This document shows, piece after piece, positions 13,555 to 22,250 of a stretch of 64,000 nt of DNA. Position 1 is the first letter of the stretch, and the number at the start of each line of letters is the position of its first letter. The DNA comes from an uncultured delta proteobacterium (lineage in GTDB: Bacteria > Desulfobacterota > Desulfobacteria > Desulfobacterales > JAHEIW01): the NCBI GenBank assembly GCA_963706575.1, contig CAVPNL010000006.1, positions 320,001 to 384,000 on the forward strand. The letters run 5' to 3'. The position numbers and the translations under genes are program-made. The notes under the pieces are model-generated. The model did no database searches and was not told the origin of the DNA. It saw only the letters and a list, made by a program, of their open reading frames with translations.

Positions 13555-15828
13555 ATGTCACTTAAAACATTAAAATGGGCAGCAATTCTGTGTTTTGTTG
13601 TTGCCATGGCCGTCCTGCTGGTCGGCGGCGTCGCCATGAAAAATGACCTGCCGCCTTATCCCGCAAAGGTCGTCGACGCCGGCGGCAACGTACTTTTTGA
13701 GCGCTCGGATATCATTGCCGGTCAGGACGTCTATCAGCGCTTCGGCCTGATGGATCATGGGGCGGTATGGGGTCACGGTTCCCAGAGGGGGTCGGAGTTT
13801 TCGGCCACATCGCTGCACATCGTGGCCGAGGCCATTGGCGATTATCTGGCCCTGGCGGATTACGGTAAAAATTATGCCCAGCTCGATGATCTGCAAAAAG
13901 AGATCATCGATGTTAAGACCAGGGCTGAGATCAAACCCAACCGCTATGATGCCGACAGCGATACGCTCAAACTCACCGACGCTCAGGTCAAAGGTCTTGA
14001 GCGCGTCATGCAACACTGGGAAAAAACCTTTAAAGACGGTGAAATCCGCTATGGTTTTCTTCCCAACACGGTTCCCGAGCAACAGCAGCGTATGCAGATA
14101 TCACGCTTTTTCTTCTGGACGGCATGGGTGGCCTCAACGCTTCGTCCGGGAGAAGACTACTCTTACACCAACAACTGGCCCCCGGACACCCGGGTGGGCA
14201 ACGTCCCGAGTACCGACGCCTTTTTCTATTCCATCGCCGGCGTTCTGGCCCTGCTGGTTGTCCTGGCGCTGTTTGTCTACTGCATTCACCGTTACGGCTT
14301 ATGGTATGGACAAGCCAAAGGGACGGCCCTGGCTGAAAAATTGATCGATATGCCCTTGACCCGCAGCCAGTTTCAAGCCGCCAAATTTTTTGTGGTGGTG
14401 ATTCTGTTATTTTTGCTCCAGACCAGCTTCGGCGGGTTGCTGGCGCATTACACGATTCATCCAGGCAGCTTTTTCTTACCCATCGTAGCAAACCTGATCC
14501 CTTATAGCTGGGCCAAAACCTGGCATTTGCAGCTGATGGTTTTCTGGATTGCCACCACCTGGTTGGCGTCCGCCATCTATCTGGCGCCAATCATCGGCGG
14601 CAAAGAACCGGCCAAGCAGAGCCTTCTGGTTAAGTTGCTTTTCGCTGCTGTCCTGCTTGTGGCTGTGGGCAGCCTGACCGGAGAGGTTCTGGGTATCAAG
14701 GGGATGCTGGGGAATTTATGGTTCTGGCTGGGCCATCAGGGCTGGGAATTTCTGGAGCTGGGCCGTATCTGGCAAATCCTGCTGTTTGTGGGTCTGATTT
14801 TCTGGCTGCTGATCGTGTACCGGGCCGTTGGCGGTCATCTGAAGCGCCACAAGGATGAATTCAGCGCCTTGGTCTGGTTTTACGTGTTCAGCGCCGTGAT
14901 GGTGGTCGGCTTTTTTGGTTTCGGGCTTTTTTACGGCCAGGGCTCGCACCTGACCATGGCGGACTACTGGCGCTGGTTCGTGGTTCACCTCTGGGTGGAA
15001 AGCATCTTCGAGTTTTTCGGTATTGCGGTCATTGCACTGCTGATGGTGGCCATGGGGCTGGCCACGGCCAAGGCCGCTTTAAGGGTGGCTTATTTTACCG
15101 CGGCCCTTACTTTTCTCAGTGGGATTATCGGAACCGCCCATCACTATTACTGGTACGGCGGGGCTGCTTTCTGGATTGGCTGGGGGTCGATATTCTCTTC
15201 GATGGAGCCGGTGCCGTTATTGACGCTGGTGGTGCGCGGTTTAATGGAGTACCGCGAGATCCGTAAAGAGGGCAGGGAGTTCTCTTACAAGTGGCCCCTG
15301 TATTTTCTGGTGGCCGCTTCCTTCTGGAACTTTCTGGGCGCCGGAATCTTTGGCTTCCTGATCAATTTGCCGATTATCAATTTTTTTGAACACGGGACCT
15401 ACCTGACCATGCACCACGGTCATACGGCCATGTTCGGAACCTACGGCATGCTTTCCGTCGCTTTGCTGCTGTTCTCCTGGCGCGGTCTGGTCGACAAGGC
15501 CCACTGGAAAGATGGAATCCTGAAGCTTTCCTTCTGGGGTCTCAACGGCGGGTTGTTTCTGATGGCGTTTGCCACCCTGCTGCCGATCGGGGCCATGCAG
15601 GCCTGGATCTCTTTTAAAGACGGCCTCTGGGTGGCCCGCAGTGCGGATTTCTTCGAGAAGGGCGCCGTCGTCTGGCTCGGAACCTTTCGCGCCCTCCCCG
15701 ACACCATCATCATCGTGCTGGGGGTCCTGCCGCTGGCCTACTTTCTCATCACAACGTATCCGCACCTAAAAGCTGCGGAAATCAAAGACAATGAGTCCGT
15801 GTGGGAACGGCTGGGGATTGAACTCTAA
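13555..15828 (+). CDS. norB: Quinol-dependent nitric oxide reductase (qNOR, NorZ/long NorB)
   Basis: GAVWGHG, SYTNNWP, TWHLQ, QGWEFLELGR, WRWFVVHLWVESIFE, GTAHHYYW, SSMEP, HHGHTAMFG; 757 aa; GGAGG RBS. Confidence 0.95.
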   Translation: MSLKTLKWAAILCFVVAMAVLLVGGVAMKNDLPPYPAKVVDAGGNVLFERSDIIAGQDVYQRFGLMDHGAVWGHGSQRGSEFSATSLHIVAEAIGDYLALADYGKNYAQLDDLQKEIIDVKTRAEIKPNRYDADSDTLKLTDAQVKGLERVMQHWEKTFKDGEIRYGFLPNTVPEQQQRMQISRFFFWTAWVASTLRPGEDYSYTNNWPPDTRVGNVPSTDAFFYSIAGVLALLVVLALFVYCIHRYGLWYGQAKGTALAEKLIDMPLTRSQFQAAKFFVVVILLFLLQTSFGGLLAHYTIHPGSFFLPIVANLIPYSWAKTWHLQLMVFWIATTWLASAIYLAPIIGGKEPAKQSLLVKLLFAAVLLVAVGSLTGEVLGIKGMLGNLWFWLGHQGWEFLELGRIWQILLFVGLIFWLLIVYRAVGGHLKRHKDEFSALVWFYVFSAVMVVGFFGFGLFYGQGSHLTMADYWRWFVVHLWVESIFEFFGIAVIALLMVAMGLATAKAALRVAYFTAALTFLSGIIGTAHHYYWYGGAAFWIGWGSIFSSMEPVPLLTLVVRGLMEYREIRKEGREFSYKWPLYFLVAASFWNFLGAGIFGFLINLPIINFFEHGTYLTMHHGHTAMFGTYGMLSVALLLFSWRGLVDKAHWKDGILKLSFWGLNGGLFLMAFATLLPIGAMQAWISFKDGLWVARSADFFEKGAVVWLGTFRALPDTIIIVLGVLPLAYFLITTYPHLKAAEIKDNESVWERLGIEL

Positions 15829-15852: not shown

Positions 15853-15888
15853 AAAAGGCCCGGTTCAAATCGAACCGGGCCTTTTTTT
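15853..15888 (+). terminator. Rho-independent terminator of the qNOR gene
   Basis: AAAAGGCCCGGTTC-AAATC-GAACCGGGCC followed by T7. Confidence 0.9.
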
Positions 15889-16208
15889 CACAACCGATAG
15901 AGGTACCTCAAGACGGTCCGAGTCTTTGAATGAACCACCGTTTTTTCAAGAATCACGTTGGCTGTTTTGTGAAATTGACACTGGTCTGCTTCGCACCTAT
16001 TTTTTCCGAATTCCTTGCATAAATCAGGACTCAACCGACTTTCATTTTCGGATATAAACCGTTTGACCAACCTGATCGGATCATCCTATAAATGTCTTTA
16101 AGGTATATGTTGAAGGCCCAATTAACCTTGAAGAAGATTGAGTCGAGAAGAAAGCCAGGGTCCGGTACATCGCACATGTTTAGATAAATATCGTTGGAGG
16201 GACTAAAA

Positions 16209-18665
16209 TTGCGAAGAGAAGAAGTGGTTAAACTCAGTTTCGGTGATCGCAGCAGCCGAAAATCTCTGCGGGGTCACTTCTTTCGAGTGGCAAGCCCGAT
16301 CGGGTTTGTCGTTGTCATGCTGGCTGCGTTGCTGGCGATTACCGGTTACTCCTACTTTAGCAATCGACGGGATGCGCTGGCGCTGTCGAATGAAGTGCTG
16401 GGGGCGATTGAACGGCGCATCGCCGGAGAACTACAGGCTTTTATTACGCCCGTAGAAGATACGGTTCGGCTCACGGCTAATTTCTTAGAAAATACATCAT
16501 TTGATATTCAAAATCGGGCTTTATTGGAGCCGCTTGCTTTCAGGGTTTTGGGCAATCTTTCGCAGGTTACCAATTTCATTGTTGCTGATCCCCGGGGCAA
16601 TTTTTTAATGATAGCCCGCATGCCGGACGGATCCCTGCACACCAAAATCATCGAGCGCTCCGCGGCAGCGACACAGGTAACCTGGATCCGTCGCGATACA
16701 GAAGGCAACGTGGTTGATGAGCAAACATCCGTTGATGATTCTTACGATCCGCGGAATCGGCCCTGGTACACGGGGGCTGTAAACAGAGAAAAGCCAAACT
16801 GGTCGGATTTCTACATATTTTTTACCAGCCAGACCCACGGCGTGACGATCTCACTGCCGGTTATGGAAAAAAACGATGAACGCCTGGGTGTATTCGGCCT
16901 GGATATTGAATTGAAAGAGATCAGCGCGTTTCTGGAGACCTTAAAAATCGGCCAGAACGGTGAGGCCATTATTATCAATGAAGACGGTTATATCGTTGCC
17001 CATCCGGAGATCAAAAAAATGGTGAAAAGGGAAGGCGATGTATACAAACCCATCCGGGTGGAAGAACTGGGAAACCCGGTTTTAAATCGTGCATACAACC
17101 GCTTTCGCATCGATGGGTATGGTCATCGAGATTTGATCGTTGACGGTCAGCGCTATCTCAGTGCTGCTTTCATGCTTCCCCAAGAAACCGGACTCGATTT
17201 ATCGGTATTTGTTTTTGTTCCGGAAGAGGACTTTGTCGGCTTTGTTTCACGCAACAATCGTACCATTTTGCTGATGTCCTGCGGCATAGTCGTCCTGGCA
17301 GCAATTATGGCTGGTCTGCTGGTTTTCCAGGGGCTGCGGGCGGAACGCAATGCCCAGCAGGTGCTCGATCGCCAGCATGAACTCGAGGCCCAGAGCCGGG
17401 CCTTTTCCGAGCTGTCATCTAAAGCAGCCGTGTTTGATGCCGAGGATACGGAATCGTTTGGACAGTTAACCGAGGTTGTTGCCGATGCCATCAATTTAAG
17501 ACGTAACAGCCTGTGGAATTTTGATGATGGCGGCCAATTCTTGAAGTGTATCGACAGTTACGATCGCGAAAGCGATGGCCATACGCAGGGGACTGTTCTT
17601 GCGCGGGCCGACTTTGCTCCGTTGTTCGATCTGTTGCAGAACGGCCAAGAGATCAGTGCCCCTGATGCGCAAACCGATGATCGATTGACCGAGCTGTATC
17701 GGGTGTACTTGCAACCGCTGGGCTGTGAATCATTGTTGGCGGTACCGATTCGTTATCATGATTGGACAGCGGGGGCCCTGTGGTTCGAGCACGAGCGACG
17801 GCCCCACGCCTGGTCGACCGAAGAAATTTCTTTTGCCAACGCCATTGCCAACATGCTGGCATTACGGTTTTCAGCGGATCGAAAATCAATGCCCGCGCCT
17901 GCATATCTGAAAGACGAGGCAGACAGCGCCGAAGGTTCCGCTGCCCCAGGGGCGGGAGCAGGCACCGCTGACAGCGATGCTCGGCCCGAACGATCTCCGG
18001 AGAAGACCGATCGTGATGCACGGCAAACGACTGTTGTTTCTGCGGACAGAACAGGCCATTACACTTCGTTTTTGGATCGTCTGGCAGCCGCTGGCATTGA
18101 TCCTGACCAAATGGCTGCTGATGTTTTTACGGATACGACGGTCCTGGCCCTCCGATTTACAAATCCCATATCGCTTGCCGTGCGTATTACGGATACCGAA
18201 TCAACGACGATGGTTGAGCTCATGGTCGGCTATCTGGAAGAGCTGGTTGCATCCCGGGGCATCGAATATATGAAAATTATGGGGGATGAGATCGTCTGTG
18301 CGGCAGGAATCGATCCCGGCGCTAAAGACCATGCCCGTTTGATTGCCGACCTGGCGCTTAACCTCCAGAATCGCTGTACCGGCTTGTTTGCATCAATGAA
18401 CACCCCTATGGAGTTCCGCATCGGAATCGACACCGGGGCCGTTATGGGCAGTTCGGTGGGTCGCGAAGTGAAAACATACAATATCTGGGGCGAGGCCGTT
18501 CGTTTTGCATCAAAGATGGCAGAATCCGGCATAGCGGGTGGAATCCAGGTTTCGCAAACCACCTATCGACGTCTGCGAGCCGATTACCTTTTTCAGATGC
18601 GCGGCAGCTATTATTTGCCCAGCATCGGTGAGACGTCAACCTATCTTCTGACAGGACGAATATGA
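16209..18665 (+). CDS. Membrane protein TM-dCache-TM-GAF-class III nucleotide cyclase domain, catalytically degenerate
   Basis: YDPRNRPWY (dCache), SLLAVPI...GALWFE...WSTEE (GAF), YMKIMGD, FRIGIDTG, YNIWGEAV (cyclase fold). TTG at 16209 follows GGAGG; the ORF track starts at 16194. Confidence 0.85.
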   Translation: MRREEVVKLSFGDRSSRKSLRGHFFRVASPIGFVVVMLAALLAITGYSYFSNRRDALALSNEVLGAIERRIAGELQAFITPVEDTVRLTANFLENTSFDIQNRALLEPLAFRVLGNLSQVTNFIVADPRGNFLMIARMPDGSLHTKIIERSAAATQVTWIRRDTEGNVVDEQTSVDDSYDPRNRPWYTGAVNREKPNWSDFYIFFTSQTHGVTISLPVMEKNDERLGVFGLDIELKEISAFLETLKIGQNGEAIIINEDGYIVAHPEIKKMVKREGDVYKPIRVEELGNPVLNRAYNRFRIDGYGHRDLIVDGQRYLSAAFMLPQETGLDLSVFVFVPEEDFVGFVSRNNRTILLMSCGIVVLAAIMAGLLVFQGLRAERNAQQVLDRQHELEAQSRAFSELSSKAAVFDAEDTESFGQLTEVVADAINLRRNSLWNFDDGGQFLKCIDSYDRESDGHTQGTVLARADFAPLFDLLQNGQEISAPDAQTDDRLTELYRVYLQPLGCESLLAVPIRYHDWTAGALWFEHERRPHAWSTEEISFANAIANMLALRFSADRKSMPAPAYLKDEADSAEGSAAPGAGAGTADSDARPERSPEKTDRDARQTTVVSADRTGHYTSFLDRLAAAGIDPDQMAADVFTDTTVLALRFTNPISLAVRITDTESTTMVELMVGYLEELVASRGIEYMKIMGDEIVCAAGIDPGAKDHARLIADLALNLQNRCTGLFASMNTPMEFRIGIDTGAVMGSSVGREVKTYNIWGEAVRFASKMAESGIAGGIQVSQTTYRRLRADYLFQMRGSYYLPSIGETSTYLLTGRI

Positions 18666-19510
18666 ACGACGAACCCGTCATACCATCAGAAAAAGATGAT
18701 ACCTTGTATACGGCGCCAAAGCTGAGGCGTTTGCTGGCAACCACCGGTCGGTGGACCATTGGCCTATGGCAATGGCCGGTTACATTTATCAGCGATGCCG
18801 TGGCCGTCATCTGGCAAAGTTGCCGCCCGATCACCTGGCGACGTTCGATCCGCATCGAGTTTATGCGCCAGTGTTATCAGGTCGGGGCACAGGCTGTGCC
18901 GTTTATTCTGGTGAGCGGGATCTTCGTGGGATTTGGCATCGTCGCCCAGGCGCTCCATTGGCTAAAGGTCTTTGGCAGTACGGCATTGTTCGGCGGATTT
19001 CTGTCCACTGTTCTGGTACGTGAAATCGCGCCGGTGCTGGTCGGCCTGATTGTGATCGGACGCAGCGGATCAACCCTGTTGGTCGAGTTGGGCACAATGA
19101 AGACCGAAGGCCAGGTTCACATGCTGGATGCCCAGGGCATCGATCCGTTTCTTTATCTGGTGGTGCCGCGGGTTCTGGCATTTTGCGTTTGTATGTTTTC
19201 TCTGACGACGGCTTTTGTGGCGGTGGCCCTGTTAGCGGGATTTGCTTCAGGCAAGCTGTTCGGCTTGATACAATTCACTTTTTTTGATTTTATTAATCGC
19301 GCCATCGGTTCAATGGGCCGGCAGACATATTTATTGTTTACCCTGAAGACCGTTACCATTGGTTTTGTGGTTGCGCTGATATCCTGTAAGACGGCGCTGT
19401 CGCTCACCGATGTTTCGGCCAGGGTACTGGATATCATGCCGCGGGGGTTTGCCAAATCGGCGCTGGCTACCTTGATCATATCTATTGCACTGACAATTTT
19501 ATTGAAATGA
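18662..19510 (+). CDS. MlaE-family ABC permease
   Basis: VREIAPVLVGLIVIGRSGS...ELGTMK...LDAQGIDP..YLVVPR; ATGA overlap with the cyclase gene. Confidence 0.9.
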   Translation: MNDEPVIPSEKDDTLYTAPKLRRLLATTGRWTIGLWQWPVTFISDAVAVIWQSCRPITWRRSIRIEFMRQCYQVGAQAVPFILVSGIFVGFGIVAQALHWLKVFGSTALFGGFLSTVLVREIAPVLVGLIVIGRSGSTLLVELGTMKTEGQVHMLDAQGIDPFLYLVVPRVLAFCVCMFSLTTAFVAVALLAGFASGKLFGLIQFTFFDFINRAIGSMGRQTYLLFTLKTVTIGFVVALISCKTALSLTDVSARVLDIMPRGFAKSALATLIISIALTILLK

Positions 19511-19522
19511 AAGCTAAATCGG

Positions 19523-20230
19523 ATGGCGGTGATTCTTCAAAAGCAACGCGTGATTTTACGGTTCGATGATACGGTTTTCGCAAGCACAACCCATGGCCCC
19601 GCTAAGTCTAATGAAGTCGGCCTGAGTGTTTGCAGCGGGGAACTGTTTCTGATCCGTCTGGCGCGCTTTGAGCAAACTGCGACATTTGCAGACGCATGCG
19701 CCGGAATCCTCCAGCCGATCAGCGGCAAGGTATATTTTCTGGGAAGAAACTGGCCGGAGTTGCCTCCCGACCAGGCCAATGCGCTGCGGGGGCGGATCGG
19801 CCGTGTATTCAGGACGGCAAACTGGATCAACCACTTATCGCTGATGGAAAATATATTGCTTTCACAACTTCACCATACCCGCAGGTCTGTCCGCCGATTT
19901 CGTGATGAAGCCGGGAAGCTGGCACAGCAATTTGGTCTTCCGGGACTGCCCCTGGGGCTGCCGGGCGATTTTACACCTGCCGACCTGCGACGCGCTGCCT
20001 GTGTGCGGGCATTTTTGGGTCGACCCCTGCTGATTCTTTTAGAAGAGCCAACTTCCGGAATTTACGCTGAAATCATATCTGCATTGATGACCGCCGTTCG
20101 AGCGGCGCGTGAGCGCGGAGCTGCTGTCATCTGGCTGACACAAAAAAATTTGATCTGGCGTGATCCGACCCTGCCGGTAACCCAGCGATATCGACTGGTC
20201 GCCGGGAAGCTGATGGAGGTGACAATGTGA
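19523..20230 (+). CDS. MlaF-like ABC ATPase, degenerate
   Basis: ABC-fold remnants (PISGKVYFLG, LRGRIGRVF, LSLMENILL, LILLEEPT) but no Walker A or LSGGQ. Confidence 0.8.
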   Translation: MAVILQKQRVILRFDDTVFASTTHGPAKSNEVGLSVCSGELFLIRLARFEQTATFADACAGILQPISGKVYFLGRNWPELPPDQANALRGRIGRVFRTANWINHLSLMENILLSQLHHTRRSVRRFRDEAGKLAQQFGLPGLPLGLPGDFTPADLRRAACVRAFLGRPLLILLEEPTSGIYAEIISALMTAVRAARERGAAVIWLTQKNLIWRDPTLPVTQRYRLVAGKLMEVTM

Positions 20231-21273
20231 AAGAGACGCTGAGGCAACCAAAGTTCCGCTATACGAATGAAACGGTCGGGTTGTTTGTATTGATCACCCT
20301 GCTGATTTTTGTCGCCGGACTGATTTATTCCGGTCAGGTTCGAAAGTGGTTTAACCCCGGGGAAACGCTCAAGGTGGTGCTGCCTGATGAAGGGCTTTTC
20401 GGCCTGACGGAAGGTTCGACAGTCGAGATTCTGGGAACCAAAGCCGGGGAGGTCCGGGATATCGTCATCAATCCCGATCAGAAGATACACGCGAATGTAC
20501 GAATTGATAGCGACATGGCGGTATTCGTTCGCAGCGATTCAAAAGCGACGATACGCAAGACGTTCGGCATTGCCGGTGATGCCTACCTTGAAATTACCCG
20601 GGGCACCGGGGCGCCGCTTGATTGGGAATATGCCGTATTAACCGTCGCGTCGGATCGCAAGACATCCGACACGCTGGCTGAATTGATCGATGAGCTGCGG
20701 GCCAAGGTTTTACCGGTTGTCGACGATGCCCACAAAGCAATCCTTATGCTGACGGCCGTTGCCAAGGATCTGCAGGATCCCGACAAGGGGGTTCAGCAGC
20801 TGATGGCAAATCTGAATTCCATCGCCGATCGGATCGATCGGGGGGAAGGGGCGATCGGGCGCTTGCTCACCGAAGATAAACTTATAAAGGATCTGGAAGC
20901 CCTGATCACCCGGATGGGCCCGATTTTTGACGATCTGGAAAAAATGATTCAAAACGTTTCGGAATTCTCCAAAGAATTCGATATCGAAACCGGTGATATT
21001 CCGCAGATTACCCGAAATCTCAAGAAGACCCTGGCGTCTATGGAAGAGGTGATGAAGGACCTTAGCCAGACCACACCTCAACTACCGCAGATTGCCAAAA
21101 ATGTTGGCGACACCACCGATTCGGTTCCGATACTCGTTTTGCAGGTGCAACAGGTGATGATCGAACTGGAACGTTTGATCCAGCAACTTCAGTCTCACTG
21201 GCTGCTGGGAGGCGGCTCCGGCCAACCGTCGCAGACAGCTACCCGAATATCGCCGCTGGAGGTGAACCCATGA
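20227..21273 (+). CDS. MlaD/MCE-family protein with long helical C-terminus
   Basis: N-terminal TM; GLTEGSTVEILGTKAGEV, GIAGDAYLEITRG; IDRGEGAIGRLL; GTGA overlap. Confidence 0.9.
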   Translation: MKETLRQPKFRYTNETVGLFVLITLLIFVAGLIYSGQVRKWFNPGETLKVVLPDEGLFGLTEGSTVEILGTKAGEVRDIVINPDQKIHANVRIDSDMAVFVRSDSKATIRKTFGIAGDAYLEITRGTGAPLDWEYAVLTVASDRKTSDTLAELIDELRAKVLPVVDDAHKAILMLTAVAKDLQDPDKGVQQLMANLNSIADRIDRGEGAIGRLLTEDKLIKDLEALITRMGPIFDDLEKMIQNVSEFSKEFDIETGDIPQITRNLKKTLASMEEVMKDLSQTTPQLPQIAKNVGDTTDSVPILVLQVQQVMIELERLIQQLQSHWLLGGGSGQPSQTATRISPLEVNP

Positions 21274-22250
21274 TCTCTTATCTTCGCACGCGTTATTGGG
21301 TTGGGCCCATCGGGTTAATCCTGGCTGCTGTCATTTTGACTGTGAGCGGTTGCGGATCTTCACCACCGAAGCAAAAGGGCCCGGCCATCGATGCGGATCT
21401 TGAACGGTTTAATCGGGCAGGGCGACTGGCCTTTGACAAGGGTCGACTGCAGCAGGCTGCCAGTTTTTACCGCAAGGCGCTGGACCGTGCCTATGTGCGT
21501 GACGATACGGCAGCGATCCTTGACGCCCAATACAATCTGGCATTATGTTTAATGAATTTGCAATCCTACGAGGAGGCGCTGCGTGTGGTTCAGGACGCCA
21601 ACAGCGAGATGGCGCGAGCGGGTCGTGGCAATTCGCTGGATTTTCTTCTCCTGGAAGCCACCATCCTTCACCGCCGTGGGAATTTGGAAAAAGCCTGGAA
21701 GATTACAGACCAAATCCTATCGCCTGCGACCAAGGCTTCTGAGGTTGTTAAGAGCAAAACTCACTTCTTGCGGGGATTGATAGCAAGCGAACAGGACGAT
21801 GTTGATCAGTTGCACACGGCAATCGCCTCCCTCGGACAACCGGAACAACCCCGGCTGCGCGCAGATCGTCAGGAGTTGGTGGGGCATCTGGCCATGGCAG
21901 AATATAACTGGGATGCTGCCATGGAAGCATTTGACACAGCGGCGAAACTGCGCCGTGAAGCGCTTAACTATCGAGGTATGGTGAAAGTTCTGGCTCTGGC
22001 AGGCCAAGCCAGCGAAAAGGCGGGACGCCCAAAGGAAGCTTCGATCCGTTACCTTAGAGCCGGGCGTAGCGCCATGTTGCAGGGCCTGTTCGATGACGCC
22101 CGGAAATGGCTGAATCTATCCCTGCAACTTGCAAACAACGCTGGAGAAGATAAAATAAATCAGGAGGCGCGCAGCTTTTTGCTGCAGATAGAAGCGCTAA
22201 CCGCAGGGGCACCGGACAGCTCCGGTGACGAGGCGACTTTGTTAGAATAA
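21270..22250 (+). CDS. TPR-repeat lipoprotein
   Basis: Lipobox VSGC; TPR-like repeats (GRLQQAASFYRKAL, AQYNLALC); ATGA overlap. Confidence 0.75.
   Translation: MISYLRTRYWVGPIGLILAAVILTVSGCGSSPPKQKGPAIDADLERFNRAGRLAFDKGRLQQAASFYRKALDRAYVRDDTAAILDAQYNLALCLMNLQSYEEALRVVQDANSEMARAGRGNSLDFLLLEATILHRRGNLEKAWKITDQILSPATKASEVVKSKTHFLRGLIASEQDDVDQLHTAIASLGQPEQPRLRADRQELVGHLAMAEYNWDAAMEAFDTAAKLRREALNYRGMVKVLALAGQASEKAGRPKEASIRYLRAGRSAMLQGLFDDARKWLNLSLQLANNAGEDKINQEARSFLLQIEALTAGAPDSSGDEATLLE

Follow-up and report, generated by a model that had tools for sequence, protein, structure and literature searches.

What does a lipid-transport operon do when its ATPase has lost its catalytic motifs and a receptor with a degenerate cyclase of its own is encoded directly in front of it? 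The question is raised by a five-gene operon at positions 16209-22250 of a 64,000-nucleotide stretch of contig CAVPNL010000006.1 (assembly GCA_963706575.1, positions 320,001 to 384,000, forward strand) from an uncultured delta proteobacterium of the Desulfobacterales; the whole stretch is referred to here as the window. The five open reading frames (ORFs) lie on the + strand, are all intact and are tightly coupled, the junctions being, in order, an ATGA overlap, a 12-nt gap, a GTGA overlap and an ATGA overlap. The original prediction for this locus had described five co-oriented genes joined in this way, and the ORF coordinates agreed. The products are a receptor ending in a class III pseudo-cyclase, an MlaE-type permease, a subunit with the fold of an ATP-binding-cassette (ABC) nucleotide-binding domain (NBD), an MlaD/MCE protein and a TPR lipoprotein (Table 1). 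We suggest, at a probability of about one half, that the receptor, rather than ATP, switches a passive lipid conduit resembling the Mpc system of Brucella abortus; its cargo, direction and gating we infer.

The ABC-fold subunit has lost its catalytic motifs

Both nucleotide-handling proteins had been described as degenerate yet full-length, as motif alignments and the intact ORFs confirmed. In the ABC-fold subunit of the window, the Walker A position reads LARFEQTAT and the signature FTPAD, with further substitutions in the Q-loop (Gln to Arg), Walker B (Asp to Glu), D-loop (Asp to Tyr) and switch (His to Gln). Walker A and B, Q-loop, signature, D-loop and His switch are thus all lost, and the protein does not qualify as an ABC ATPase; its database annotation is ATP-binding protein. 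The AlphaFold2 model is nonetheless a complete NBD fold (predicted local distance difference test, pLDDT, 88.7; TM ~0.8 to MlaF, LolD, FtsE and YbbA). The chain stops at the last strand and lacks a C-terminal extension; lengths of 220-249 aa were found for 135 of 150 relatives.

The losses were found throughout the family. Two sets were compared: 59 copies from loci collected by a DNA-pattern search, in which conservation of ANALRGRIG is biased because it was itself a search pattern, and a recount set of the best 150 of 465 profile matches (E ≤ 1e-30, library clustered at 50% identity). A Walker A pattern occurred in neither (0/59 and 0/150), and the Walker A region was freely variable across both. 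When the 59 copies were aligned to the host's intact MlaF, the Walker A Lys was kept in none, the Q-loop Gln in three, an LSGG-type signature in none, the Walker B Asp in one, the D-loop Asp in none and the switch His in one. Among the 150 diverse relatives, two had an xSGG string, 14 the Walker B Asp and 15 the D-loop Asp; a conserved Glu replaced the Walker B Asp in 125. The residues conserved by the family are W77, R89, G93, W101, H118 (which aligns to REHT in E. coli MlaF), a loop from G138 to P143 (conservation 0.67-0.98 in the 150 relatives), R162, P168 and W204.

The dead subunits of this family formed a single clade on a long branch, which quick trees did not nest within MlaF; the trees were made by a quick method only, long branches meet in them, and in one an unrelated row was mislabelled as family. 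The best profile matches within the subunits' own genomes were of the MlaF clade, and many weak matches adjoined mlaE. The domains originally named for the five proteins were recovered by Pfam; the name 'MlaF-like' rests on gene position and top profile matches.

The receptor ends in a pseudo-cyclase with exchangeable inputs

The last 195 aa of the receptor gave an AlphaFold2 model with a pLDDT of 88.6, whose best Foldseek match was Rv1625c (E 1.3e-18, ~30% identity); as modelled, the C-terminus has the class III cyclase-homology fold. Class III cyclases use two metal-binding Asp, an Asn, an Arg and a β7-β8 Lys (PMC2576301). In the window, the first Asp is replaced by Arg, the Asn by Arg, the Arg by Lys and the β7-β8 Lys by Pro, while the second Asp and the base-selecting Lys are retained. 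Among 64 family domains, none of the four core catalytic residues was kept in 32, one in 25 and two in seven; at least three were kept in 0/64, as against all four in each of 11 active class III controls, taken from the host and relatives. Asn and Arg never occurred together (0/64), and both Asp occurred in three copies, all of the receiver type described below. The metal-binding and transition-state positions varied without pattern. The base-selecting Lys was kept in 46/64, and the second base-selecting position was Asn or Asp in 64/64.

One feature is specific to the family. The motif RG-x-[FY]-[FYW] was present in 64/64 family domains and 0/11 active domains, at the hairpin site that carries the phosphate-binding Lys in active enzymes.

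The N-terminal part of the receptor is an input module that can be exchanged. The periplasmic dCache domain of the window carries a YRWYD pocket motif shared by 26 of 45 aligned receptors, seven others having FRWYD. We take R184 to match the Arg position of the amino-acid-sensor motif. The corresponding pocket residues in PctA are Y121, W128, Y144 and D173, and part of the YRWYD motif is common to amine sensors (PMC11245519). The ligand may possibly be an amino acid or amine. In a variant at ~40% identity, a receiver domain stands in place of Cache-GAF and is followed by the same four genes; wherever such loci include upstream sequence, the variant lies downstream of a membrane hybrid kinase. 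A full dCache-GAF, or a receiver beside a hybrid kinase, was present wherever the receptor N-terminus was covered. The pseudo-cyclase is thus the constant part and both alternative N-termini are input modules; therefore, signal flow would be toward the MCE complex. This suggests that the MCE complex is a signalling output rather than a sensor. One locus has a receptor-like Cache and GAF fragment on the strand opposite an intact operon and just 3′ of it (Table 1).

Linkage, distribution and selection

The original prediction depended on the cyclase gene being linked to the MCE genes in other genomes. It preceded mlaE in 61 of 72 loci, which are all 61 with enough upstream DNA; the other 11 end at most 1.2 kb upstream of the dead gene. 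All five genes were present in 55/72 loci, and every absence fell at a contig end. The linked operon spans Desulfobacterota, Alphaproteobacteria and Gammaproteobacteria, its carriers including Azospirillum, Skermanella, Elioraea, Gluconobacter, Acetobacter, Ameyamaea, Bombella and a Competibacteraceae metagenome-assembled genome (MAG); close relatives of the window operon are labelled Desulfobacterales. Prevalence was patchy: 17/61 relatives, 2/301 genomes of the host phylum, 1/301 of a gammaproteobacterial class sample and 4/401 of Azospirillum's phylum, where only seven candidates were scored per genome. The dead subunit occurred in 90/151 genomes of Gluconobacter's order (E < 1e-59). Plasmid copies were not found at E 1e-20. 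Taxon listings hinted at possible members in Verrucomicrobiota and Planctomycetota.

Selection on the operon was assessed from the ratio of nonsynonymous to synonymous substitution rates (dN/dS; Nei-Gojobori method, some dS values near saturation). It was 0.10-0.27 for the window against five orthologous loci; a further 13 pairs gave 0.00-0.41, apart from two values that could not be computed. All five genes were well below 1, indicating purifying selection, whether the pairs came from Desulfobacterales, from Azospirillum-like bacteria or from acetic acid bacteria. Orthologues therefore share the catalytic losses under low dN/dS, the outcome that the original prediction had proposed as a check, and lineage-specific decay was rejected since the losses are family-wide.

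Five further regions were inspected: four had all five genes and one was broken. The broken locus, from a 2 Mb genome of Gluconobacter's order, has frameshifts from mlaE through the TPR gene, either a true loss or a sequencing error (Table 1). Single frameshifts in MAG loci L041, L043, L050, L051 and L067 are possibly assembly errors. Two apparent exceptions were discarded. A stand-alone receptor in genome G023 proved to be an assembly gap, its ATGA overlap with mlaE running into Ns; the mlaD tail and TPR gene of this genome were located elsewhere, behind Ns. TGA recoding was suggested by seven matches with one TGA each; in the two inspected, this TGA was the natural stop.

The pseudo-cyclase is predicted to contact the dead subunit

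A complex model of the cyclase domain with the MlaF-like subunit had been proposed as a further check, and direct contact was predicted. The dead subunit and pseudo-cyclase domain scored 0.72, 0.73 and 0.75, the three controls 0.00; the runs shared ≥98% of their contacts, with a partner pLDDT of ≥79. In calibration the mark was reached by 116/157 solved and 2/215 mismatched pairs, figures that are approximate here since custom alignments were used. The lowest-error pairs joined loop residues 139-144 of the dead subunit to hairpin residues 176-181 of the pseudo-cyclase, whose interface (chain 2) covers 175-181. The RGxFY hairpin and GLPGLP loop, both singled out by conservation before modelling, form the interface core; in the model, the hairpin docks on the GLPGLP loop of the helical subdomain. 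We know of no solved cyclase-NBD complex that the prediction could echo. In E. coli, MlaB binds the helical subdomain of MlaF, and rotation of this subdomain alters the coupling-helix cleft (PMC7367683).

Envelope components of the operon

The permease scored below the NCBIfam MlaE cut-offs and was recognized as MlaE-type by PF02405. It retains the canonical positions GRxG, E142, DP and PR; in the N-terminal and coupling-helix regions, it carries residues peculiar to the family. The fourth protein is a single-MCE MlaD with a long helical tail, as in Mpc-type systems; the hydrophobic moment of the tail is maximal near 103 degrees, and a W-L-L-G-type tail motif occurs in 59/69. Cys28 of the TPR lipoprotein was kept in 65/66 aligned rows and a lipobox expression matched in 54/65; this protein is likely an outer-membrane cap in place of PqiC/MpcA. 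Pfam found neither a STAS domain nor PF03886 among the five proteins, and locus comparison gave no MlaC- or MlaA-like conserved neighbour.

A proposed receptor-gated conduit and its alternatives

The pseudo-cyclase is predicted to grip an NBD without ATP motifs; therefore, the signal sensed would likely open or close the conduit. Two dead subunits would sit on the MlaE coupling helices, bridged by a pseudo-cyclase dimer that would serve as clamp in place of ATP and the MlaF C-terminal handshake. A dCache ligand, or receiver phosphorylation, would shift the cyclase dimer and rotate the helical subdomains, gating MlaE. Lipid or other hydrophobic cargo would then flow down its gradient through the MlaD needle, with the TPR lipoprotein as cap. 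The shared losses and the linkage support the original proposal of a repurposed trans-envelope complex. More tentatively, the dead cyclase dimer of a transmembrane receptor may clamp a dead ABC motor and directly gate an envelope-spanning MCE lipid tunnel, with neither ATP nor a second messenger. This would be a new class of signalling output, with Cache or two-component input, widespread among acetic acid bacteria, small-genome associates of bees included; we regard this fuller version as plausible rather than probable.

Several observations weigh against receptor gating. The 22 predicted interface residues have a mean conservation of 0.48, equal to the protein mean (0.48), and only the 138-143 core and D154 exceed it. 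The complex was modelled 1:1 only, so that the 2:2 clamp and its effect on MlaE extend beyond the model. GL-x-G-x-P is found in 106/150 family members and also in 5/38 non-family ABC domains. In 19/45 receptors, mainly those of acetic acid bacteria, the dCache motif is missing or changed. Many loci come from near-relatives, some from the same or sister genomes, and the counts overstate independence. Finally, five MlaF-clade ATPases of the host, including two orphans, are intact and could work in trans, and a dead-ATPase MCE and TPR operon persists elsewhere without the cyclase, so that gating may be dispensable.

That second operon, from two gammaproteobacterial genomes, encodes a TPR lipoprotein, MlaE, a dead NBD and a long MlaD whose HWLLGG tail is the one seen in the receptor-linked family. 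Its NBD had no GLPGLP-type loop and there was no adjacent cyclase in these two close genomes, where the best cyclase-profile matches, 58 and 57 bits, were far below family scores. Joint absence of loop and cyclase fits their pairing. The following gene resembles the acyltransferase/acyl-ACP synthetase that we take to be Aas. The missing cyclase also favours a constitutive passive conduit or inner-to-outer membrane tether, in which the pseudo-cyclase would be an MlaB-like structural subunit, steadying the dead NBD on MlaE, with little control by signals. MlaB binds the same subdomain and is required for MlaF-MlaE association (PMC7367683), and the operon is retained, like a housekeeping part, in 1.7-2 Mb genomes of Gluconobacter's order. 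The input modules, however, have been kept, with a pocket motif conserved in most receptors, and we consider a constitutive role unlikely, if a real contender.

Reverse sensing would have the MCE bridge read the envelope state or a captured lipid and relay it, by way of the dead NBD, to the pseudo-cyclase, which would then signal through some further partner or by sequestering active cyclases. Several active class III cyclases occur in the host, and the three receiver-type copies with both Asp could each be half of a mixed dimer. Both catalytic halves are missing in the other 61, however, the receptor has no output domain and its swapped N-termini are both input modules, making this direction improbable.

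If transport were driven by ATP in the ordinary way, with an ATPase recruited in trans, the dead subunit would be a placeholder or inhibitor, to be removed or held in place by the receptor. Such action in trans is known for mycobacterial MceG, and here the two orphan ATPases, looked for in this host only, would be available together with three other Mla operons, all with intact ATPases. Further MlaE genes were present in all five other carriers tested. From these intact and additional genes it follows that the system is additional to ordinary lipid homeostasis. Against borrowing, the family-specific MlaE residues and the invariant W77, R89, W101 and H118 of the dead subunit suit a dedicated pair. 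The original prediction had allowed for heteromers with active partners; these are disfavoured by the loss of both Walker-side and signature-side motifs and by the lack of any family cyclase with Asn and Arg. Judging from ABC architecture, a mixed dimer would have both of its composite sites incomplete, so a heteromer with an active NBD is unlikely, and borrowed ATP hydrolysis as a whole is distinctly improbable.

Non-canonical nucleotide binding or turnover by one or both domains, such as ATP or cyclic AMP (cAMP) acting as an allosteric ligand of the pseudo-cyclase, could draw on the retained base-selecting positions and the conserved Glu at Walker B, but the freely variable Walker A region and patternless metal-binding and transition-state residues make it very improbable; binding without turnover would be compatible with a receptor-gated conduit.

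Two other observations were made on the host's Mla genes (Table 1). Four intact MlaF-clade ATPases, two in Mla operons and two orphans, carry a C-terminal extension, assigned to GGDEF by Pfam in the two tested; no GGDEF motif was visible in the extensions. GGDEF has a cyclase-related fold. By sequence, these ATPases are a second case in which an Mla NBD is joined to a degenerate domain resembling a cyclase. The host also has an Mpc-type operon (STAS-MlaE, intact MlaF, long MlaD, PqiC-like), preceded by 3 nt by a gene for a putative cyclic-nucleotide-binding and PAS membrane protein, its domains judged by eye, which is a possible further cAMP-MCE link.

Gene starts, flanks and feature positions

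The receptor start is a TTG preceded by GGAGG, and the resulting length is shared by close orthologues; the ORF tool also listed an upstream TTG at 16194. By Pfam, the operon is flanked by a nitric oxide reductase gene upstream and a convergent hybrid kinase gene downstream; neither of these nor any further neighbour recurred across distant carrier groups in the locus comparison. A hairpin of 15 pairs lies 3′ of the quinol-type reductase gene, with T/A runs on both sides, and is likely a bidirectional terminator, judged by its sequence. Promoter and terminator scans gave no signal above shuffled sequence. RNA-library contigs of relatives span all five genes (85-99% identity, four runs, four studies), but cannot show transcription, as DNA may be present in those libraries.

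Table 1. Positions of the operon genes, sites within them and other loci mentioned in the text (window coordinates unless a genome or locus handle is given)
Feature	Position	Strand	Details
Two-transmembrane receptor: periplasmic dCache_1, cytoplasmic GAF, C-terminal class III pseudo-cyclase	16209..18665	+	818 aa; Pfam dCache_1, GAF, Guanylate_cyc
dCache pocket Y179, R184, W186, Y202, D232	16743..16904	+	resembles amino-acid-sensor motif
RG-x-[FY]-[FYW] stretch, C-terminal β hairpin; predicted docking arm	18600..18620	+	motif counts; strand 170-180 in model
MlaE-type permease without STAS domain	18662..19510	+	282 aa; PF02405 E 3.9e-42, 144.7 bits
ABC-NBD-fold subunit without catalytic motifs	19523..20230	+	235 aa; weak ABC_tran 29.5 bits; AlphaFold2 fold
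FGLPGLPLG loop, residues 137-145, helical subdomain; predicted pseudo-cyclase docking site	19931..19957	+	conservation, complex model
MlaD/MCE protein, long amphipathic helical tail, terminal W-L-L-G-type motif	20227..21273	+	348 aa; PF02470
TPR lipoprotein	21270..22250	+	326 aa; TPR Pfams
Quinol-type nitric oxide reductase gene	13555-15828		Pfam NorB cytochrome c-like, COX1
Hairpin 3′ of reductase gene	15853-15885		15 pairs
Second dead-ATPase MCE operon	L169:7233-10549 (G809); L170:7368-10627 (G982)		
Receptor-like Cache and GAF fragment	L036:5672-6448	-	
Broken operon	L166 (G1116:C1:296000-306500)		
C-terminally extended MlaF-clade ATPases	G000:C18:141726-142946; C4:475583-476863; C9:160185-161492; C1:375972-377258		
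Host Mpc-type operon	G000:C4:628131-633115		

Comparison with known systems

The closest relative in layout is MpcEFDA of Brucella abortus, a Mla-Pqi chimera that likewise combines in one operon MlaE, an ABC-fold subunit, a long helical MlaD (331 aa, against 348 here) and an outer-membrane lipoprotein, with no MlaC shuttle (PMC12436622). In Brucella, however, MpcF is reported to be a well-conserved ABC ATPase, MpcE includes a STAS domain and the lipoprotein resembles PqiC (PMC12436622), whereas the window operon has a dead NBD, no STAS domain, a TPR lipoprotein and a leading receptor gene. As the ATPase, STAS and PqiC tests failed, the operon was not classed as Mpc. For PqiABC and LetAB, too, the MCE tunnel is encoded in an operon that has no ABC ATPase, but these systems are built from PqiA/LetA membrane proteins and multi-MCE rings rather than MlaE with a dead NBD and a receptor (PMC5561183). 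The words 'cyclase' and 'TPR' are absent from the main text of that MCE neighbourhood survey, whose tables may list the cluster (PMC5561183). The original prediction knew of no description of such a system, and none was found in the literature covered, which excluded supplements and most subscription papers.

MlaE-type MCE systems are understood as ATP-driven, though their energy use and direction are debated (PMC7790496); a natural ATP-less version would directly test what the MlaE-type chassis does without hydrolysis. The carriers include cultured Gluconobacter, Acetobacter, Bombella and Azospirillum, and the system is thus experimentally accessible. Rv1625c-type class III cyclases share the fold (~30% identity) and the receptor architecture, but not the losses seen here of the Asp/Asn/Arg set and β7-β8 Lys, or the RGxFY hairpin found instead. 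E. coli MlaFEDB and MlaFB share the MlaE and MCE core and a partner on the NBD helical subdomain; there, the motifs of MlaF are intact, its C-termini form a handshake and the partner is a STAS protein, whereas here the predicted partner has a class III cyclase fold (PMC7367683, PMC7790496). The parts are therefore known, while the predicted wiring of a pseudo-cyclase on a pseudo-ATPase as receptor output matches no system found. The MlaFB study reported no further ABC structure in which a partner sits close to the MlaB site (PMC7367683); if the prediction is true, the cyclase fold, used as a mechanical arm, would be a second kind of partner on the ABC subdomain that MlaB binds.

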